Of a stretch of 64,000 nucleotides of DNA, positions 1,265 to 47,318 are shown piece after piece. Origin of the DNA: a phage; the sequence record PZ445526.1, one strand, 5' to 3'. How positions within the stretch are numbered: the stretch's first letter is position 1; every line of letters starts with the position of its first letter. The notes beneath the pieces are model-generated. The model was not told the origin of the DNA, ran no database searches, and was given only the letters and a program-made list of their open reading frames with translations. Both the position numbers and the translations under genes were made by a program.

Positions 1265-3961
1265 TCAGCCAAACAGGAAGTCTAACGAAGCTTTTTCTTC
1301 ATAGTCCATGCCAGCCGATTCACACATACCCGCAAGCGGTTTAACAAACGATTTTTGGAACAAAGTTGAGTGGTCAATCCAAGATAGCACATCAGAACGA
1401 ATTTCTTTTGGAAGTTCTGTACCCGATGGCCAAGCAATGCACTTGTCACCAAATGGATTTCCTTCACGTAATGGAAGAACCATTACTTTATTTCCATCCA
1501 AAATTGGAGCTACACCCAGACCACTAACAGCTCGACGATAAGTTAGCACACCGCGAATATGGAACGGGCATTTAAATCCTGGCCAACCTTTATCATCATA
1601 TTTCGCTATATCGTTCGCAGTTTTTACTTCAGCAATAACTTTATAGTCAAGTTGACGATATTCTTTCTCGAAGTTCTTGTAATATTCTTGGACAGACTCT
1701 TCACCTTCCTGAAGAATACGACGAATACTTTCTTCGAGAGCTTCTTGGACCGCTTTAGGCGTTGAACTCTGCTGAGTTTCCATACCCATGATTTTTAGAT
1801 GCGGTTCAGCAAATCGCTTATCTTCCATATCATATACGTTCAGAGCATAACGCTTTTTCGCTTTCCAAAATCCACCAACGCCCTTTGAACCAAGTGGAGG
1901 GCAAGAAATAGCTTCACGGTCCATATGCATCAGATGCTCGCGGTTATTCATATAATCACATAACTCACGATATGCAACATCAATCATAGGTTCCATCTTT
2001 TTCTTACCGAACTGATTCATGAATTCAACTAAATCGTTCTGCTCTTTGAATCGGTCAAGACCAACTTTTTCAATAACTTTATCTACACAAACATATACCG
2101 AATCAGTATCACCTGCTGCAATGAAATCTTCGCCATTAGTTCCGCATACTTTATTCAGATATTCATTAATTTTACGAGCAATCCACTGAATACCAACTTG
2201 GCCGAAAATTGTGATAGCAGTAGCATTTCGCAAATCATAGTAACGGAAATGAATATTACCAAGAGCACCATAAAGACTGTTAATAAGAATTTTACGGTTC
2301 AGCTGATTTGTATTAGCAAGTGTAGCCGCTTTTTCACATTCTTCAATCAAACTATTGAGAACAGATTCAGTATAATTCGATAGTTCATTTAAGAAATCAT
2401 CACTGAACTTAACATATCGTTCAACTTCAGGTTTAGTTGAACAAGACCCTGCGCCTTTCATAATAATCTTTTTAATAGCTTCGGCATTCATTTCTTCAGC
2501 GAACATTTTCTTTTTCCAATCTTTACGCTGGAAAAATACTTTAGCGATTTCCTTTGGAATGATACCTTCTTGATGCTTATCATACATCCATCCATTAGGA
2601 GAACAAGAATATTCATCACTCGGTTTAGGAGCTGTTCCTGCGATATATTCATGAATTGGATGAACTTTAAACTGACCACGAATAGTTTCAGGACTAATGT
2701 TAACCTGACGAATAATGCTCGGATACAGAGACGTCAAGTCAAAACTCATAATGTATCGACGTGCAATTGGTTTAGGTTCAAATACAAATGCACCCGGAAA
2801 ACTCTGTTTAACGTGCGAACCTTGTTGAGGAATAACCTTATGTTCACCTTTCAATGAGTTAAAAATAATAGCATCCCAAGTTTTAATAGGACTCATTACA
2901 CCAGAAAAAGGCATTTTAGCGTAATAAGACATACTTAAAACTAGATCGATAAACCCGCGAATTTTATCAATTGCTTGAACTGATTCTACGTCAATGATGT
3001 TATAACTAATGTATCGTTGATGATTAGTCTCACGAAGTTTATTAATAGGACCGTCGTATGGTAATTTACCTTTTTTGGTTTCATGTTGAGCAACTGATTC
3101 CAAAGAGAATGACGGCAAATTAGTAAAAGCAAATTTCTTGTACAAATCTAAATAATCAAGAATAGATACGCCATCAATAGAATAAATTTCTTTGCTGCCG
3201 TACATATTTTGAATTAGTTTAGATTTTACCCGACCGATTGGAGAGAAACGTTTCATACTGCGTTCGCCCAGAATCATTTTAACACGATTCATGATATACG
3301 GAACGTCAAACCCCTCAATATTCCAACCAGTAAAAATAGCAGGTCGTTTCTGTTCCCAGAGATTGATATATTCCATGAGCATATCACGCTCATTATCGAA
3401 TGGCATATAAATTACTCGGTCAAGAATTTCTTGAGGAACTTCATCACCACCTTCACAGTCAAGCTTAGCAGCTAACTTTGCATCCCATTTTGATACTGAA
3501 CCGTACATTGAATTCAAAAGGTCGAAAACATAAAAACGATCGTCAATTGAATCGTAATGAGTGATAGCATCAATTTCATATTCAGCTTTCATTGGGTCAG
3601 GAAATTTATCACCAGTAACCTCAATGTCACAGTTAGCTACACGAACAAATTTTCGGTCATAAACAATTTCTGAACCATATGTATCACTGATATAAGCGAG
3701 TTTAAAATCGTTCATACCGAGAGCTTCGAGACCGATGTCTTCCATTCGCTTCATCCAATCTCGAGCATCTTTCATTGATGGAAATTTTTGAGGAGCGCAG
3801 TTTTTACCATAGATGTCTTTGTATTTTGACTCTTCCTTACAATGCCTAAACATAGTTGGAAGATATTCTACTTCACGAGTACGTTCCTTTCCGTTTTCAT
3901 CAATATAACGTTCAACAATGTTATTTCCGACTGTTTCGATAGAGATATAAAATTCTTTCAT
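1265..3961 (-). CDS. 43: DNA polymerase (family B, with 3'-5' exonuclease)
   Basis: 898-aa ORF; exonuclease motif (ANCDIEVTG), polymerase motifs (SLYPSII, YGDTDS-like DTDSVYV); matches T4 gp43 in length and sequence as I recall it. Confidence 0.97.
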   Translation of the reverse strand: MKEFYISIETVGNNIVERYIDENGKERTREVEYLPTMFRHCKEESKYKDIYGKNCAPQKFPSMKDARDWMKRMEDIGLEALGMNDFKLAYISDTYGSEIVYDRKFVRVANCDIEVTGDKFPDPMKAEYEIDAITHYDSIDDRFYVFDLLNSMYGSVSKWDAKLAAKLDCEGGDEVPQEILDRVIYMPFDNERDMLMEYINLWEQKRPAIFTGWNIEGFDVPYIMNRVKMILGERSMKRFSPIGRVKSKLIQNMYGSKEIYSIDGVSILDYLDLYKKFAFTNLPSFSLESVAQHETKKGKLPYDGPINKLRETNHQRYISYNIIDVESVQAIDKIRGFIDLVLSMSYYAKMPFSGVMSPIKTWDAIIFNSLKGEHKVIPQQGSHVKQSFPGAFVFEPKPIARRYIMSFDLTSLYPSIIRQVNISPETIRGQFKVHPIHEYIAGTAPKPSDEYSCSPNGWMYDKHQEGIIPKEIAKVFFQRKDWKKKMFAEEMNAEAIKKIIMKGAGSCSTKPEVERYVKFSDDFLNELSNYTESVLNSLIEECEKAATLANTNQLNRKILINSLYGALGNIHFRYYDLRNATAITIFGQVGIQWIARKINEYLNKVCGTNGEDFIAAGDTDSVYVCVDKVIEKVGLDRFKEQNDLVEFMNQFGKKKMEPMIDVAYRELCDYMNNREHLMHMDREAISCPPLGSKGVGGFWKAKKRYALNVYDMEDKRFAEPHLKIMGMETQQSSTPKAVQEALEESIRRILQEGEESVQEYYKNFEKEYRQLDYKVIAEVKTANDIAKYDDKGWPGFKCPFHIRGVLTYRRAVSGLGVAPILDGNKVMVLPLREGNPFGDKCIAWPSGTELPKEIRSDVLSWIDHSTLFQKSFVKPLAGMCESAGMDYEEKASLDFLFG

Positions 3962-37622: not shown

Positions 37623-38096
37623 TTATTTGAACGATTTAACGTACTGAATAGAACCTTTACTATTCACAAAGGCAATTTTACCATTTTTGTTATACATGGT
37701 AGCAGTACGTTGATAACCGTAAGTTTGTTTACCAGATTGATAACCAACTAATGCGAAATTATCTTCACCCATTTTATTCTGCTTAGCACGAATGCGTTCA
37801 TGACCATGTGCCATAAGAACCTTAGCATCACCAGTTGCAATGGATCGACGAGTTTTTTCATCTTCAACTGTATTAACAAAGTCGTCAAATGAATCAAATT
37901 TAGCATGAGATTTATTATACAGTTTTCCATCTACTGCATAATTATATCCTTGTACATCCATCTCAACTTCTGTACCATCATCCAATACAGCAGTGATTTT
38001 TTGACCTTTTTTAAATTTCAAAAGATCAGTAAAAGATTCAGCAATAATTTGAGAATTAATAGCTGCTTCAGTAATAAATTCTTGATATGTTTTCAT
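37623..38096 (-). CDS. internal-protein-like gene with capsid targeting sequence (157 aa)
   Basis: N-terminus MKTYQEFITEA matches the T4 internal-protein capsid targeting sequence (prohead protease site after I/LxE); the payload is unlike T4 IPII as I recall it. Confidence 0.65.
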   Translation of the reverse strand: MKTYQEFITEAAINSQIIAESFTDLLKFKKGQKITAVLDDGTEVEMDVQGYNYAVDGKLYNKSHAKFDSFDDFVNTVEDEKTRRSIATGDAKVLMAHGHERIRAKQNKMGEDNFALVGYQSGKQTYGYQRTATMYNKNGKIAFVNSKGSIQYVKSFK

Positions 38097-38214: not shown

Positions 38215-38796
38215 TTAAGAATTACCACGGGCTGCATTAGCAACGGCGTAAGCGTACTGAATATTAGCGTCTTTAAACTTACCTTTAGAGGTATCTATTT
38301 CTGCCTTAAAGCCGCCTTTAGTCATAACATCGGCAAATTCTTTACGGAAAGCCATTGCATCAAGACCTTTCCATGATGATTTATGCTTGGCAAATTCAAG
38401 ACCGGCAAAGTTAACAGCCTTAGCTAATTTATTATCAATAACCCATTTACCGGCTTTAGGCACAAACTTCGGACCTTTCTGTTTAGAGAACAGTTTTAAA
38501 TTCCAGCGGCGAAGGTCTGCATCAGCTTTAACAAATTCTGAGTCTAAGTTACTAGCAACAACATCTTCAATATGAGCAAATTTAAGTCCGTCAACTTCAA
38601 TATTTAAATCGGTACGCCAGCGAAGTCCTTCCCAAGCGAAGGCTTTAAAGTCGGAAGCCTTTGTAGCTAAGTACCGTTCAATAGGAGCTGTTTTAGGGTC
38701 AAAGCCGTTTCCCGATCGGTAGGTCCACTCATCTTTATTAATGCCTTTGGCCTTTACTACAGAAGCTTCAGCAATAAATTCTTGATAGGTTTTCAT
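38215..38796 (-). CDS. ipIII: internal protein III-like
   Basis: 193-aa ORF starting MKTYQEFIAEA (capsid targeting sequence); size and position as for T4 IPIII. Confidence 0.75.
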   Translation of the reverse strand: MKTYQEFIAEASVVKAKGINKDEWTYRSGNGFDPKTAPIERYLATKASDFKAFAWEGLRWRTDLNIEVDGLKFAHIEDVVASNLDSEFVKADADLRRWNLKLFSKQKGPKFVPKAGKWVIDNKLAKAVNFAGLEFAKHKSSWKGLDAMAFRKEFADVMTKGGFKAEIDTSKGKFKDANIQYAYAVANAARGNS

Positions 38797-40701: not shown

Positions 40702-41096
40702 CGTGATTCCTTAACAAATTTCATAATTTCATTAAATTCATACTCAGCAAGTTTAAGCTGGTGTTCCTTTTTAATCTTTTTGCATTGCACTTTCCAATCA
40801 CGCACGCGTTTACGATAGTGTCTTTCTTGATACCAGTATCCTATCCAATTTACGGGTACTAATAAAAATGGAACTACCAATGGAAGAGTTAGCATTAACA
40901 TAATTATTACGCCAGATTCAATATCAGTCATAACATCTAAAACACCTCCAATAATCAATAGAATTACAAATGATATGAGTATCACAGGACCTATTAATAC
41001 GTCAGTAGGAATTAGCTGGCGCTTTAATTCATACTTCAAAGGTTTACTTGGAAGGTATAGTGATGGCTTTGACATATTCTCTACATTCCTTAACAA
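40683..41096 (-). CDS. membrane protein, hypothetical
   Basis: 137-aa ORF with several hydrophobic segments. Confidence 0.5.
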   Translation of the reverse strand: MLRNVENMSKPSLYLPSKPLKYELKRQLIPTDVLIGPVILISFVILLIIGGVLDVMTDIESGVIIMLMLTLPLVVPFLLVPVNWIGYWYQERHYRKRVRDWKVQCKKIKKEHQLKLAEYEFNEIMKFVKESRCKSQN

Positions 41097-41655
41097 ATTT
41101 TTCTAGTAATAAATCACTTTCAAAATTAGGATTTTCCACTAATTTATCAAAAAGATCATCAACAATATTCAAGATATTTCTTTTACTAAGAATACGTTTA
41201 TTTTCATGCTTCGTTTCAGAATCAACTATAAGAGTAAAGAAATATTTCTTTCCCTGAAATTTTACTGTAGTATCAATATAGAATAAATTTGACTTTTGTA
41301 AGTTACGTTTAAACCATGCGTCACTTAAACTATAAACACCGAGATAATCAAAATCGTCGTTTAAATAACATACTGTCCATTCAGGAGAAATGAAATCAGT
41401 AAATTCAACATCAAAATCACACGTCAATGAATGAATTGATTCAATACTGTTAATAAGTATTCCAGGACGTATTAAAGACTTTTTACCTCTAGAAAATCTT
41501 CCAGAAAGACTTTCATCAGTTTCATATGAAGAACCCCAATAATAATTACGTCCTTCTGCCATACGTTTAAGAGCATTTAATAATTGGTCTGGAACATCAA
41601 CTTGTCTTTGGAATTCTTCAAACATTGAATTGAAATCAATTTGCATTCTTCTCAT
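41044..41655 (-). CDS. hypothetical protein
   Basis: 203-aa track ORF. Confidence 0.5.
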   Translation of the reverse strand: MRRMQIDFNSMFEEFQRQVDVPDQLLNALKRMAEGRNYYWGSSYETDESLSGRFSRGKKSLIRPGILINSIESIHSLTCDFDVEFTDFISPEWTVCYLNDDFDYLGVYSLSDAWFKRNLQKSNLFYIDTTVKFQGKKYFFTLIVDSETKHENKRILSKRNILNIVDDLFDKLVENPNFESDLLLEKFVKECREYVKAITIPSK

Positions 41656-41696: not shown

Positions 41697-42290
41697 TTAT
41701 TTCAGAGAATTAATGTATTCCTGAACATCGGCAGAGGTAGTTTCAACCCCAGAAATATTACCATTAAAGGTTTCAACTCGAGCGAGAGTGTCTTCAATAT
41801 CAACCTTAGTCAGTGCTGCAATTTCAACTACATCATCGGCAGTACTAATTCCAAGTGCATTCGCTGCTCGAGTTTCACGGATATATTCCAATTTAACTGC
41901 AAGTTCTTGGCGAGCATCATCCAATTCAACTACTTTCTTGGCGATTTCAATTCGCATTTCAGCATACCCATCAGCTTTAGTAGTTAACTGTTCAGCTGTT
42001 CGACGATATAGCAAGCCGAGTTTAGCATGCATTGTTACATCTTGACCTTCAGAAAGAAGCTTGCGAATTTCACGCTCTTTTGATTCGGCCTGTCGATTCT
42101 TTTCGACAATAAGTTCACGAATACGTTTTTCTTCATTAATAGATTTAACAGAAGCAGTTTTTAGGTCTTTAATTTTATCAAGCAGTTTTGCTGCTGCGGC
42201 AGTATACTGTTCTTCAACAGATAGATTTTTAGCCATAGCAGAACCAAGTTTAGTGCGAATAAACTCAACAATTTTCTTCAGTGTGTTCAT
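41697..42290 (-). CDS. coiled-coil protein, PspA/IM30-like (tentative)
   Basis: 197 aa, predicted largely alpha-helical coiled coil, architecture reminiscent of phage shock protein A; similarity not verified. Confidence 0.45.
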
Positions 42291-42578: not shown

Positions 42579-42854
42579 TTATTTCATATTATTGAAATAT
42601 TCTTCTGCAATTTCGTCGTTATCATGGTAAACTTTAGAAGACAGTTTAACATAACCTTCAGCAGTGAACATGTTAATCACAACCTTTACAGTATACCACT
42701 GACCATCTTCATTACCCATTACTGCATAGGTTTCAAACATCGGATGGTCAGGACCGATAACTTTAATATCATTCACTGTACGACCAAAATCTTCTGAAAC
42801 ACATTTCATAAAGAAGTTGAACAGTTCGCCGTAATTATCCATTTTATTCTCCAA
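42579..42854 (-). CDS. hypothetical protein
   Basis: 91-aa ORF with its own early promoter and conserved leader. Confidence 0.5.
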   Translation of the reverse strand: MENKMDNYGELFNFFMKCVSEDFGRTVNDIKVIGPDHPMFETYAVMGNEDGQWYTVKVVINMFTAEGYVKLSSKVYHDNDEIAEEYFNNMK

Positions 42855-42885
42855 GTTGTTTTCTGTATCAGTAGTTGATATTGAT

Positions 42886-42915
42886 ATAGTACCATGGAAG
42901 AACAGGGATGTAAAC
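42886..42915 (-). promoter_or_regulatory. T4-type early promoter
   Basis: Sense GTTTACATCCCTGTTCTTCCATGGTACTAT; near-identical to the promoter at 1117-1146. Confidence 0.6.
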
Positions 42916-43046
42916 AGTTTTGTGAAAAATTTTTTAAAAAGTTTTGGGGAATTCTAGGGCAGGGAGGGGCAATTAAAGGATAGGATAATATATTATAAAG
43001 GATAGAAACTAAATGATGCCTAGAGAGGCCCAGAAAGGTCTAGATG

Positions 43047-43073
43047 CCAAAAAGCCCTATCATTTAGATAGGG
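43047..43073 (-). terminator. rho-independent terminator downstream of ORF 43082..43648
   Basis: Minus-sense CCCUAUCUAAAUGAUAGGG followed by CUUUUUGG. Confidence 0.55.
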
Positions 43074-43081
43074 ATTTAAAA

Positions 43082-43648
43082 TTATTTGCTTAGTTTAGTT
43101 ATTATAGCTTCTGCGGCAGCTTTTAGCTTAGATGCGGTGTTAATACGATTTTTAATTTCAGTATACGCATCGCCAAGAACATCAAGGCTATCAGAATAAA
43201 CACTTACACTATTGCGTTCGCTATTTGAAATAGAACCTTTAGTTTTACGATCAAAATCGGTGTATACGTCTTGAAGATCGCGTGCTGCCTTCTTTGCATC
43301 ATCCAATGCATCAAGAGCTTTATTCAAAGCATTAACGTATTTTTTAGTATCGAACATATTCTTAGAAATTTTAACAGGCGCACGTTCAGGAGTAGCTAAG
43401 GCAGATTTAGGAAGAACCTGTTTGCCAGATGCCAGTTTCTTAGAAATTTTGAAAAACGCTTTATTGAAATTATTTTCTTGACTCATCGTAAAAGAACTAT
43501 TATCAATGTTATACATTTCAATAGCTTTAGCTTTCCACTTAAGAAAATCGCCACGGTCTTTTGGGTCCAAGTGGAAGAATACTTTAGTAAGATCTGCTTC
43601 AGATGGTAATTTTGCTGCTTCGGTTAAAAATTCGGCATAGGTTTTCAT
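43082..43648 (-). CDS. internal-protein-like gene with capsid targeting sequence (188 aa)
   Basis: N-terminus MKTYAEFLTEA (capsid-targeting-like, LxE cleavage context); the payload is not recognized. Confidence 0.6.
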   Translation of the reverse strand: MKTYAEFLTEAAKLPSEADLTKVFFHLDPKDRGDFLKWKAKAIEMYNIDNSSFTMSQENNFNKAFFKISKKLASGKQVLPKSALATPERAPVKISKNMFDTKKYVNALNKALDALDDAKKAARDLQDVYTDFDRKTKGSISNSERNSVSVYSDSLDVLGDAYTEIKNRINTASKLKAAAEAIITKLSK

Positions 43649-43723
43649 TTAAAATCCTTGAAATAATTTATTGGTTATTAATTATTTATTATCCGTAACA
43701 GCATTCTCTGAGTGATTCAAACT

Positions 43724-43749
43724 AAAAAGCCCCAACCTTTCGGTCAGGG
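43724..43749 (-). terminator. GNRA-loop terminator hairpin at the 3' end of the structured RNA region
   Basis: Minus-sense CCCUGACC-GAAA-GGUUGGGG followed by CUUUUUAGUUUG. Confidence 0.55.
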
Positions 43750-44055
43750 CTAAGCCTTGCGGCAACCTTGTCGGGGTTCCACCTGCTAAGGCAAGTGTTT
43801 GTACGAAACGCCGGGACTTGAACCCGGTTATTAAGTAGTTGACGCTACTCAATATTTTTAAAAGGCCATATCTCGACCATATCCGAACGTTCCGTCAAAA
43901 ACGCTACTCGGCTTACGGCAAAGATATTTCCTCGAATCGATAATTCGGTGCGCCGTTTCTGCTGTGATGTAAGGGGATATTAACAAATCGTAAAGATTTA
44001 TTAAGACCAGTCCTTACTCAGGGAACATCAGTCCGACGACTTACCGGTAGCGACC
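43724..44055 (-). ncRNA. candidate stable small RNA(s), possibly homologous to T4 species 1/2 RNAs (rnaC/rnaD)
   Basis: About 330 bp without a convincing ORF, GC-richer than surroundings, with a tRNA-like T-arm (ACCGGGUUCAAGUCCCGGC) and a 3' terminator hairpin, adjacent to the tRNA cluster; boundaries uncertain. Confidence 0.4.
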
Positions 44056-44062
44056 CGGTTTC

Positions 44063-44413
44063 TTAATATTCTTTTAAAGCATCAATCTGTTCACGGCGTT
44101 TACGCCATAAATCAATTGCTTCATACGCGGATTCAGCATTTCGAATTGGTCGGCATTTATGTAAAGACTTGTGATTTTGATATTTTGTAGATAATGGAAT
44201 TTTATCTAAAAGGTCTTTACGTTCAAAGTATTCGTAACCATCTAAACCAAATGAACGATTTTTGAGAAATTGCCAATGACCATATTCGTTTTGGATGTAA
44301 ATATAATCCGCGTGTTGATAAAGCAAATTAGTTTCACGAGATGAGATATGGTTTTCATATTCATTGAAGTAAAATGTTAAATCATGAACTACTAAATAAA
44401 CATTACCTTTCAT
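44063..44413 (-). CDS. hypothetical protein
   Basis: 116-aa ORF with Shine-Dalgarno GAGGAA 7 nt upstream of the ATG; lies between tRNA-Arg and the RNA region. Confidence 0.5.
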   Translation of the reverse strand: MKGNVYLVVHDLTFYFNEYENHISSRETNLLYQHADYIYIQNEYGHWQFLKNRSFGLDGYEYFERKDLLDKIPLSTKYQNHKSLHKCRPIRNAESAYEAIDLWRKRREQIDALKEY

Positions 44414-44687: not shown

Positions 44688-44762
44688 TGGTGGCCCTGGG
44701 TGGAATTGAACCACCATCTGGCGATTATGAGTCGCTTGCTTGAACCTTCCAGCTACAGGGCC
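44688..44762 (-). tRNA. tRNA-Ile (CAU; Met-type anticodon, likely lysidine-modified as in T4)
   Basis: Acceptor GGCCCUG/CAGGGCC, anticodon loop CUCAUAA, T-loop UUCAAUU, encoded CCA. Confidence 0.75.
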
Positions 44763-46305: not shown

Positions 46306-46530
46306 TTATTCAACACCAGCGGCTTTCAAAAGTTTCTTAAGATTGGCAACACCTTGAGCAGAAAATGTGACCTTGCCACCTTTTTCACTGATAGAACCAA
46401 CCAATTTAGCAAGTTTATCATTAGGAATTTTTTTAAAATCAGCCAATGTTCCATCAAAGGTTTTTGAAACAAAAGGCAGTTCATCTTCATGTCTTTTAGC
46501 TTCTACAATAAATTTTTGATATGTTTTCAT
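46306..46530 (-). CDS. internal-protein-like gene with capsid targeting sequence (74 aa)
   Basis: ATG at 46530: MKTYQKFIVEAKRHEDELPF...; capsid-targeting-like N-terminus. Confidence 0.55.
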   Translation of the reverse strand: MKTYQKFIVEAKRHEDELPFVSKTFDGTLADFKKIPNDKLAKLVGSISEKGGKVTFSAQGVANLKKLLKAAGVE

Positions 46531-46566
46531 TTTATTCTCCAATTTCACATTTGTTTTGATAGGGTA

Positions 46567-46596
46567 ATAGTATCACTACCCCATCTAAAAGTAAAC
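46567..46596 (-). promoter_or_regulatory. T4-type early promoter (cassette copy)
   Basis: Sense GTTTACTTTTAGATGGGGTAGTGATACTAT plus leader ACCCTATCAAAAC...GGAGAATAAAATG. Confidence 0.55.
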
Positions 46597-46606
46597 AGTT
46601 TATAAA

Positions 46607-46915
46607 CTATTTTATTCCGCGTGATGCAATTGTGTTCTGTCGTTTAACACCAGTTTGTTTAAAGTCATGATTGTCGATTTGATCGGTACGAGCAACTCCG
46701 AATGATGATTTGATCTTAGCTTTAGATCCTTTAGTTATAGAAATAAACATCTCAGAAGCCCCTTTCTTAAAGTCCGAGGCGATTACTTCAACGCCGTTCT
46801 TAGCAAGTGACTTCAGAATTGCCTCCGCGTATTCATCGTCAAGACTTGCCTGAGTATTAATAACGAATGTCTTTGGCGCAGCCGCTTCATTGATAAATTC
46901 TTTAAATGTTTTCAT
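46607..46915 (-). CDS. internal-protein-like gene with capsid targeting sequence (102 aa)
   Basis: N-terminus MKTFKEFINEA; basic, Lys-rich payload. Confidence 0.55.
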   Translation of the reverse strand: MKTFKEFINEAAAPKTFVINTQASLDDEYAEAILKSLAKNGVEVIASDFKKGASEMFISITKGSKAKIKSSFGVARTDQIDNHDFKQTGVKRQNTIASRGIK

Positions 46916-46945
46916 TTTATTTTCCTAATTAATTTTGATAGGGTA

Positions 46946-46975
46946 ATAGTATCACTACCCTATTTAAAAGTAAAC
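46946..46975 (-). promoter_or_regulatory. T4-type early promoter (cassette copy)
   Basis: Sense GTTTACTTTTAAATAGGGTAGTGATACTAT plus leader ACCCTATCAAAATTAATTAGGAAAATAAAATG. Confidence 0.55.
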
Positions 46976-47248
46976 TCATTTTAAATAAATTGCGTATTTT
47001 TTATAACCCGCTGACTCATGACGAAGACCCTTATCATTAGCAAAACGCTCAATGTTGTTAATTTGATTCTGATCAAGTTCAGAGATGTCAAACACGAAAA
47101 AGTTACGTTTGTTACCAACTGTTATATAGTCAGTTAAATCAATATCATATAGGTAATTGATGTCAGCAATCAAAGTCTTGACAGCTTTGCTAATTTTTAC
47201 TTTTTCGTTAAAAGCAGCTTCAGCAATAAATTCTTGATACGTTTTCAT
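46976..47248 (-). CDS. internal-protein-like gene with capsid targeting sequence (90 aa)
   Basis: ATG at 47248: MKTYQEFIAEAAFNEKVKISKAV...; identical first 11 residues to the ipIII-like gene. Confidence 0.55.
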   Translation of the reverse strand: MKTYQEFIAEAAFNEKVKISKAVKTLIADINYLYDIDLTDYITVGNKRNFFVFDISELDQNQINNIERFANDKGLRHESAGYKKYAIYLK

Positions 47249-47276
47249 TTTATTCTCCTCAGTAGTTGATAGGGTA

Positions 47277-47306
47277 ATAGTATCACTACTAAAACCCAGT
47301 GTAAAC
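47277..47306 (-). promoter_or_regulatory. T4-type early promoter (cassette copy)
   Basis: Sense GTTTACACTGGGTTTTAGTAGTGATACTAT plus leader ACCCTATCAACTACTGAGGAGAATAAAATG. Confidence 0.55.
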
Positions 47307-47318
47307 AACTTTGTGAAA

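Follow-up and report, generated by a model that had tools for sequence, protein, structure and literature searches.

ORF188, an open reading frame (ORF) of 188 codons on the minus strand of a 64,000-nucleotide stretch of phage DNA (sequence record PZ445526.1; below, the window), probably encodes a protein that is packaged by means of its N-terminal decapeptide and trimmed by the gp21 protease at Glu10. Packaging and processing of this kind would make ORF188 a new, unannotated member of the internal protein (Ip) class and the slot between rnaC and e.8 a third, previously unnamed Ip locus. The window represents a Tequatrovirus near RB14, Shfl2 and vB_EcoM_G4498, with approximately 95% DNA identity across 3.8 kb. 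A first-pass annotation of this DNA had described an internal-protein-like gene away from the canonical loci, and the ORF, its N-terminus (MKTYAEFLTEAAKL) and its location outside the ipIII and ipI loci were all found as claimed; the strand, which that annotation did not give, is minus. ORF188 starts with ATG, directly follows the tRNA/rnaD/rnaC block and precedes e.8; the ipI locus lies 2.7 kb upstream of it and ipIII 4.3 kb downstream. Thus, it lies in neither customary Ip locus, i.e., neither the ipI locus (57B..tRNA.4) nor the ipII/ipIII locus beside e, residence in one of these being a usual rather than a strictly defining feature of the class. The gene is functional and under purifying selection, with ratios of nonsynonymous to synonymous substitution rates (dN/dS) of 0.04-0.10 among four orthologues, comparable to those of ipIII, e.8 and e.6.

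Packaging was suggested by the match of the N-terminus to the capsid-targeting sequence (CTS) of the T4 internal proteins. In IPIII, the first ten residues are enough to package foreign proteins (Mullaney and Black, reviewed in PMC9026906), and suppressor and truncation work has assigned residues 4 and 7 to targeting and residues 8 and 10 to processing by gp21, which cuts after L/I-x-E (PMC9026906). In ORF188, Tyr4 and Phe7 occupy the targeting positions and Leu8 and Glu10 the processing positions, and all four fit; the predicted cut would leave the neo-N-terminus AAKLPSEADLTK. When a degenerate pattern of DNA encoding M-K-T-[YF]-x-[EK]-F-hydrophobic-x-E was run against the window, six matches were noted as opposed to 0.00 expected from 100 shuffles. 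Each of the six was the start of a minus-strand ORF, five being those of canonical ip genes (38796, 38096, 46530, 46915 and 47248) and the sixth that of ORF188, in agreement with the first-pass description of this N-terminus as capsid-targeting-like. A six-frame scan of the whole T4 genome found the motif at the ORF starts of ipII, ipIII and 61.1 only, while ipI carries the variant MKTFKEF...ITE/A within a 19-residue propeptide. No T4 protein known as non-packaged was found to bear the motif, 61.1 being one of unestablished status. The latter gene (NC_000866 18966..19130, minus strand; 54 aa, annotated 'hypothetical') starts MKTFKEFIKE/D and is the only T4 ORF outside ipI-III with the full CTS-like decapeptide.

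The signal was also retained throughout a divergent family. ORF188 itself was found at 85-100% identity in 165 phage records, nearly all from Tequatrovirus plus RB69, and is absent from T4, T2, T6 and most Tequatroviruses. The orthologues, which include RB14ncORF136c, RB69ORF148c/149c, Shfl2p135 and bas37_0243, are all annotated 'hypothetical' (e.g., RB14ncORF136c) and none is called an Ip. When 5.8 and 1.8 billion proteins were searched with the single sequence, only near-identical orthologues and one metagenomic relative of 31% identity were returned; from this relative, a profile search reached a wider family present in at least 351 phage records. Its members include JS98 orf135 (Dhakavirus), JS09_035 (Mosigvirus) and proteins of KMB19 (Karamvirus), Marfa (Marfavirus), EcS1 and a metagenomic T4-like contig. 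Thus, relatives at 20-30% identity occupy the same slot across at least five genera of Tevenvirinae, and in every genome inspected the family gene lay in the interval that follows the tRNA block and precedes e.8. Every member starts M-x-x-[YF]-x-[EDQ]-[FI]-[LI]-x-E, with Ala, Ser or Thr as the next residue; in many of them a further [LI]-x-E/[AS] lies 5-8 residues on, an arrangement like that of the two-step, 19-residue IPI propeptide. Conservation of the motif across homologues of 20-30% identity in the same slot indicates that the union of signal and cargo is old and predates those genera. The proposal that the N-terminus co-varies within a genome was rejected, as in KMB19 the family protein opens with MLNF... 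and the products of the remaining ip genes with MKTY...; co-variation was seen only in one small contig (L004, from Logan SRR28624380). On that contig, a 144-aa protein (2092..2526) with precomputed Pfam hits to ART-PolyVal/DUF3990 starts MITFKQFLNE/S, and the neighbouring family member (P0013, 1419..2033) starts MITFNEFLNE/S, the same unusual variant. The gene for the 144-aa protein follows a terminator and a CATAAATA box, and its sequence suggests a small capsid-targeted ADP-ribosyltransferase, a possible functional parallel to Alt.

ORF188 belongs to PHROG 2280 ('unknown function'), with residues 1-182 aligned to profile positions 1-178 (E = 1.2e-53). The same PHROG also takes the JS98 type (1e-58), the N-domain of type-B proteins (2e-18) and fD1 g140 (4e-60). 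The last of these is a different, 157-residue gene that fills the slot in fD1 (phiD1), starts MKSYTQFLNE/AVLNE/A, has a perfect TATAAATA ahead of it and another copy of the rnaC terminator behind it. It is a remote relative of ORF188 (hhalign probability 96%), and its type was found in 512 records, some of which (SF2-1, TH09 and Bas37) carry both types in tandem. The family proteins are all built from the N-terminal motif, an N-domain of helices, a basic linker (long, with much Pro, Ala and Lys, in members outside Tequatrovirus) and one of at least two unrelated C-terminal domains. Copies of ORF188 that appear frameshifted were noted in RB69 and G4500, and the EP01 copy is truncated. In RB69 (L016 1801..2363) the copy is split into ORF149c and ORF148c by a 1-nt deletion outside a homopolymer, and in SF2-1 (L015 597..1070) the g140-type copy is split within an A-run; these splits are either real pseudogenes or sequencing errors.

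Comparison with T4 showed that ORF188 resides in a discrete cassette, the boundaries of which are listed in Table 1. T4 70360-70854 aligned to window 42579-43073 and T4 70827-71168, from the rnaC/rnaD region, to window 43721-44063; 28 nt of T4 (a GGGCTTTTT-type terminator tail) matched both junctions of the insertion, and T4 runs from the rnaC terminator (...GGTTGGGGCTTTTT) straight to the e.8 promoter region. Thus, the slot is empty in T4, singly occupied in the window and fD1, and filled in tandem in SF2-1, TH09 and Bas37. Junctions between these states fall at GGGGCTTTTT, and a 27-nt copy of the terminator separates the tandem cassettes. The unit shuffled at this locus is the whole cassette (promoter box, ORF and terminator), by way of repeated terminator stem-loops, and not the CTS alone. 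Transfer of the cassette by itself into RB69 could not be demonstrated, the entire 2-kb region being approximately 88% identical.

In every cassette examined, a NATAAATA box stood directly after the terminator and about 35-45 nt ahead of the ATG. The form of the box was AATAAATA in the window, G4498, RB69, SF2-1 and Bas37, TATAAATA in JS98, JS09, KMB19 and the g140-type cassettes (phiD1 g140 and bas37_0244), CATAAATA in Marfa and GATAAATA in RB14 and the L004 contig. A consensus scan of the minus strand between terminator and ORF188 start (43649-43727) revealed no early promoter. By contrast, the canonical ip genes of the window have strong GTTTAC...TAnnnT early promoters and common leaders, and the region upstream of ORF188 is wholly unlike these. 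A candidate MotA-box middle promoter upstream of ORF188 was dropped, as it is not kept in RB14.

The predicted mature protein (residues 11-188, 178 aa) has a mass of 19.8 kDa, an isoelectric point (pI) of 9.5, a net charge of +9 and no Cys, values close to those of mature IPIII (20.4 kDa, pI 9.65), which is likewise Cys-free and similar in net charge. The first-pass annotation had called this cargo rich in Lys and Asp and unrecognized; counts of 27 Lys and 16 Asp among the 188 residues agree with the former description, and searches of Pfam, NCBIfam, PADLOC and PDB sequences, which returned nothing above noise, agree with the latter. An AlphaFold model built from an 18-sequence alignment was all-helical, with a mean predicted local distance difference test (pLDDT) score of 77. 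In this model, residues 1-12 were disordered (pLDDT <50) and a flexible linker joined the two domains listed in Table 1. Fold searches with the model gave no informative match.

The following course of events is proposed from these results. The insulated cassette, in which terminator, NATAAATA box, ribosome-binding site, ORF and terminator were observed in that order, would be transcribed late only. The sequence MKTYAEFLTE, given its match at the positions tested in IPIII, would send the protein to the gp22 scaffolding core of the prohead, where gp21 would cut after Glu10 and free a basic, helical protein of 178 residues that would stay with the head DNA. The judgement that ORF188 is probably packaged and processed covers these three steps. 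In a fourth and least secure step, proposed by analogy, the protein may be ejected with the DNA and act at the very start of infection. Its likeliest action would then be inhibition of an early defence, e.g., a modification-dependent type IV nuclease of the GmrSD-like kind, the alternative being that it binds or shields incoming DNA. In a study in which two Ip loci are referred to, Ip1, Ip2 and Ip3 were each shown to block a different GmrSD-type type IV restriction enzyme (Silas et al. 2025, PMC12373910), and the HIDEN-SEQ preprint (10.1101/2025.11.20.689424) describes action of the ipI-locus protein Bas37_0260 against a K-12 type IV system. Because of these activities, an anti-restriction role is the default guess for any new Ip. 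For mature ORF188 an anti-defence role drawn from such analogues is a tentative suggestion, and a core- or DNA-associated role, hinted at by the basic nature of the protein, the conservation of its position and the Bas37 data described below, is rather unlikely.

A number of observations weigh against packaging and a role as an injected protein. The mature parts of 17 family members showed no depletion of [LI]-x-E (17 observed, 20.2 expected). The box ahead of ORF188 is AATAAATA rather than the canonical TATAAATA, so that its activity as a promoter is putative. Sequence-library and fold searches revealed no homology or fold similarity between mature ORF188 and known Ip or anti-defence proteins. 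A literature search found no virion proteome of an ORF188-carrying phage, no direct sign of packaging or cleavage and no paper naming the locus tags of ORF188 orthologues; the fPS-90 paper contains no proteomics. The slot paralogue fD1 g140 has been detected in purified virions with LC-MS/MS, a result that fits packaging weakly, as this proteome was unspecific, with 113 of 277 gene products scored as particle-associated, including DenV, NudE, lysozyme and rIIB.

Obvious differences between ORF188 and the known Ip genes were also noted in transposon insertion data for Bas37 (phage KarlGJung, MZ501089), taken from the supplementary tables of the HIDEN-SEQ preprint (10.1101/2025.11.20.689424), the text of which is silent on the gene concerned. 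The ORF188 orthologue bas37_0243 (141028..141591), with 181 of 188 residues identical, was counted to contain 48 TA sites, exactly as in the preprint table. Insertion was recorded at only one of these, reads numbered approximately 0.2 under every condition and the preprint places the gene in its 'Essential' class; this near-intolerance was evident even in a host without K-12 type IV systems. Insertions were instead found at most or all TA sites of the paralogue and neighbour bas37_0244 (29 of 34), bas37_0245 (33 of 38), bas37_0260 (15 of 15), bas37_0261 (18 of 18) and the e.8 orthologue (23 of 23), and likewise in T4 ipI (24 of 24), ipII (22 of 23), ipIII (42 of 46), alt (174 of 179) and 61.1 (13 of 13). 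The genes neighbouring bas37_0243 and the other CTS genes all came out as non-essential. The pattern of bas37_0243 is thus unlike that expected of a dispensable injected anti-restriction protein, and it lowers confidence in such a function while keeping a structural or core role alive. True essentiality is hard to reconcile with a gene that T4 lacks and that appears frameshifted in RB69 and G4500, and the 'Essential' class includes known dispensable genes according to its authors. The call may instead have arisen from a toxic truncated product, an effect exerted at this locus by a transposon lying between two terminators or a mismatch between stock and reference. Late-only transcription was considered as a source of artefact and is unlikely to be one as a general rule, since T4 soc, 24.2 and 24.3 tolerate insertions.

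The first alternative, which is unlikely but accommodates the Bas37 result, is that ORF188 is packaged to serve in structure or assembly and is not an injected effector, i.e., that it is a prohead-core or DNA-associated protein concerned with core assembly, protease control or DNA condensation, whose loss or truncation would poison head assembly in its native phage. Near-absence of insertions was also noted in T4 at hoc and at inh (1 of 49 sites), the product of which is packaged and inhibits the gp21 protease, and a link to head morphogenesis exists for IPIII itself (PMC9026906). Also consistent with such a role are the basic nature of the family, the linker outside Tequatrovirus, which in its Pro/Ala/Lys-rich composition resembles DNA-binding tails, the strong purifying selection and a position that is conserved across genera, unlike that of the fast-swapping genes of the ipI locus. 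On the other hand, T4 and most Tequatroviruses build normal heads without the gene, copies that appear broken occur in RB69, G4500 and EP01, 'Essential' in HIDEN-SEQ extends to dispensable genes as noted above, and dN/dS was no lower for ORF188 than for neighbouring accessory genes. A related suggestion, which may be regarded as doubtful, is that the slot is a late-promoter-driven third Ip locus across Tevenvirinae, that PHROG 2280 constitutes a capsid-targeted class distinct from Ip1-3 and that its ORF188 type is indispensable, or addictive, in the native phage. Possible reasons would be a part in the prohead core or protease pathway or the neutralization of something that phage or host turns against the infection.

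Quite unlikely is a second alternative, in which ORF188 is a late cytoplasmic protein that is not packaged and owes its CTS resemblance to shared ancestry or a preference in translation initiation. T4 61.1, which bears the motif and has never been reported as packaged, fits this explanation, as do the low weight of g140 detection in fD1 as support for packaging and the negative search for an ORF188 virion proteome. Against it, the motif is kept at the exact functional positions in homologues of 20-30% identity, with [LI]-x-E/small invariant at residues 8-11, and many members have a second cleavage-type site in tandem. Moreover, because ten IPIII residues package foreign proteins (PMC9026906), a late-made protein so tagged would be expected to enter the core.

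A recent recombination event that grafted an ip targeting module onto an unrelated cargo gene, as the first-pass annotation had supposed, is very improbable. The supposition is correct insofar as a gene with a CTS lies outside the two recognised Ip loci and encodes a cargo without known relative, and shuffling of ip genes is an established phenomenon, with promoter, leader and CTS present as repeated DNA within each canonical locus. A recent graft, however, was not supported. The same N-terminus and cargo occur together in the same slot in distant genera, similarity in DNA between ORF188 and other ip genes is confined to the approximately 30 nt that encode the peptide, the upstream region differs and polymorphism at the locus maps to the terminator repeats that flank whole cassettes. 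Identity to ipIII DNA was 62% over 66 nt, no better than for more divergent canonical ip genes. Finally, although annotation offers nothing beyond 'hypothetical protein', a spurious ORF or non-coding spacer can practically be dismissed in view of the good ribosome-binding site, the 165 genomes with a full-length ORF of 95-100% identity, the distant full-length homologues, the low dN/dS (about 0.05-0.1) and the confident helical model.

Polymorphic Ip genes of T-even phages were reportedly described by Repoila et al. in 1994. Like these genes (e.g., RB14 Ip4/Ip5 and Bas37_0260), ORF188 appears to be accessory, varies between close relatives and has the same N-terminal signal; unlike them, it is not found at the ipI or ipIII/e loci, where exchange proceeds through common early promoter, leader and CTS DNA, but is exchanged as a terminator-bounded cassette. 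With T4 IPI-III, ORF188 shares an aromatic residue at position 4, Phe7, the [LI]-x-E/Ala site for gp21, a small, basic, Cys-free mature part and variable presence among T-even phages, and the mature parts of Ip proteins share no sequence with one another either. It differs from IPI-III in locus, in having a terminator and late-type box in place of a strong early promoter, in the conservation of family position across genera, in the transposon intolerance of its Bas37 orthologue as opposed to the free disruption of ipI-III in T4, and in being known here from sequence rather than from virion or cleavage data.

The cassette itself resembles the promoter-early stem-loop (PeSL) ORFan cassettes, for which modular shuffling has been described in T4-type phages (Arbiol et al. 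2010, PMC2839356; Comeau et al. 2014, PMC4122927). As judged from the DNA, ORF188 is likewise an apparently accessory ORF between conserved GC-rich stem-loop terminators in a hyperplastic region, with insertion, deletion and tandem states and junctions in the repeated stem-loop; in contrast with PeSL cassettes, its stem-loop adjoins a late-type NATAAATA box rather than a sigma-70 early promoter. The likeness to T4 Inh, annotated as a minor head protein, lies in phenotype only, i.e., in the near-absence of insertions in two genes (inh and bas37_0243), neither of which is expected to be essential, and is a lead rather than a classification.

Table 1. Positions of ORF188, its predicted parts, its cassette and the canonical ip genes in the window.
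Feature	Position	Strand	Basis
ORF188 coding sequence, 188 aa	43082..43648	-	ORF call, homologues, dN/dS
ORF188 codons 1-10, MKTYAEFLTE, CTS-like propeptide	43619..43648	-	motif match
Predicted gp21 site Leu8-Thr9-Glu10/Ala11, sole [LI]-x-E in the protein	43616..43627	-	cleavage predicted from the L/I-x-E rule of PMC9026906
N-terminal four-helix domain, residues 17-73, common to all PHROG 2280 members including those with another C-domain	43430..43600	-	alignment, model
C-terminal three-helix domain, residues 102-187, pLDDT ~80-93	43088..43345	-	model
Shine-Dalgarno AAGGA, 6 nt ahead of the ORF188 ATG	43655..43659	-	
Late-type box AATAAATA, putative promoter, 7/8 match to T4 late promoter TATAAATA	43683..43690	-	
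Intrinsic terminator stem-loop after rnaC, AGCCCTGACCGAAAGGTTGGGGCT and T run; upstream cassette boundary (second copy between tandem cassettes in some relatives)	43728..43751	-	
Intrinsic terminator right after the ORF188 stop, CCCTATCTAAATGATAGGG and CTTTTT; downstream cassette boundary	43055..43073	-	
Segment missing from T4, 647 bp	43074..43720	.	T4-window alignment
Canonical ipIII, MKTYQEFIAE/A, protein identical to T4 IPIII	38215..38796	-	
Ip4-type internal protein, MKTYQEFITE/A	37623..38096	-	
ipI locus, three tandem CTS genes (ATGs 46530, 46915 and 47248), each after a repeated early promoter/leader	46306..47248	-	

All genes of the region are on the minus strand, in the order 57B, three tandem ip genes, tRNA.4, tRNA.3, tRNA.2, ten tRNAs (45260-44432), a 116-aa ORF, the rnaD/rnaC homologues (~44066-43802), terminator, ORF188, terminator, e.8 early promoter, e.8, a 58-aa ORF, e.6 to e.2, nudE, e, ipIII and the Ip4-type gene. 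Each of the three genes at the ipI locus was noted to have its own, almost identical copy of an early promoter/leader repeat (families D2 and D3). The mechanical ORF list begins two of them (46306..46548 and 46976..47308, minus strand) at upstream GTG/TTG codons; translation almost certainly begins instead at the MKTY ATG codons at 46530 and 47248, each of which follows GGAGAATAAA. The 116-aa ORF (44063..44413, minus strand; RB69ORF150c/bas37_0245 type) lies between tRNA-Arg and rnaD, which adjoin in T4, while segB of T4 is on the other side of tRNA-Arg, another insertion or deletion in the tRNA region. The tRNA at 44688..44762 (minus strand) was called tRNA-Met(CAT) by ARAGORN and is given as tRNA-Ile in the RB14 and T4 records, the CAU anticodon being read as Ile once modified. 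Rfam is without an rnaC or rnaD model, and only the tRNAs gave hits. ORFs of 56 and 42 aa (43682..43852 and 43858..43986, minus strand) that overlap the RNA genes homologous to rnaC/rnaD as well as the rnaC terminator are annotated as coding sequences in vB_EcoM_G4498 (G4498_00138 and G4498_00139) and are very probably artefacts. Downstream of ORF188, the orthologues of window e.5 (41044..41655) and e.6 (41697..42290), bas37_0239 and bas37_0240, were strongly and conditionally depleted in one HIDEN-SEQ host comparison (log2 fold changes of -3.6 and -6.5, q = 0), and those in fD1 (g136 and g137) were also scored as particle-associated; these orthologues may be anti-defence genes.

If the Bas37 result is real, it challenges the view of CTS-bearing proteins as always dispensable, and if it is an artefact, it points to a locus-specific blind spot of the method. 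Packaging of ORF188, if true, would provide a defined variant of the ten-residue signal for cargo-loading work. Since no phage proteins arrive in the host earlier than internal proteins, a third slot, if true, would also enlarge the catalogue of candidate injected proteins with a family that is present, annotated as 'hypothetical', in hundreds of T4-like phages of the therapeutic type.

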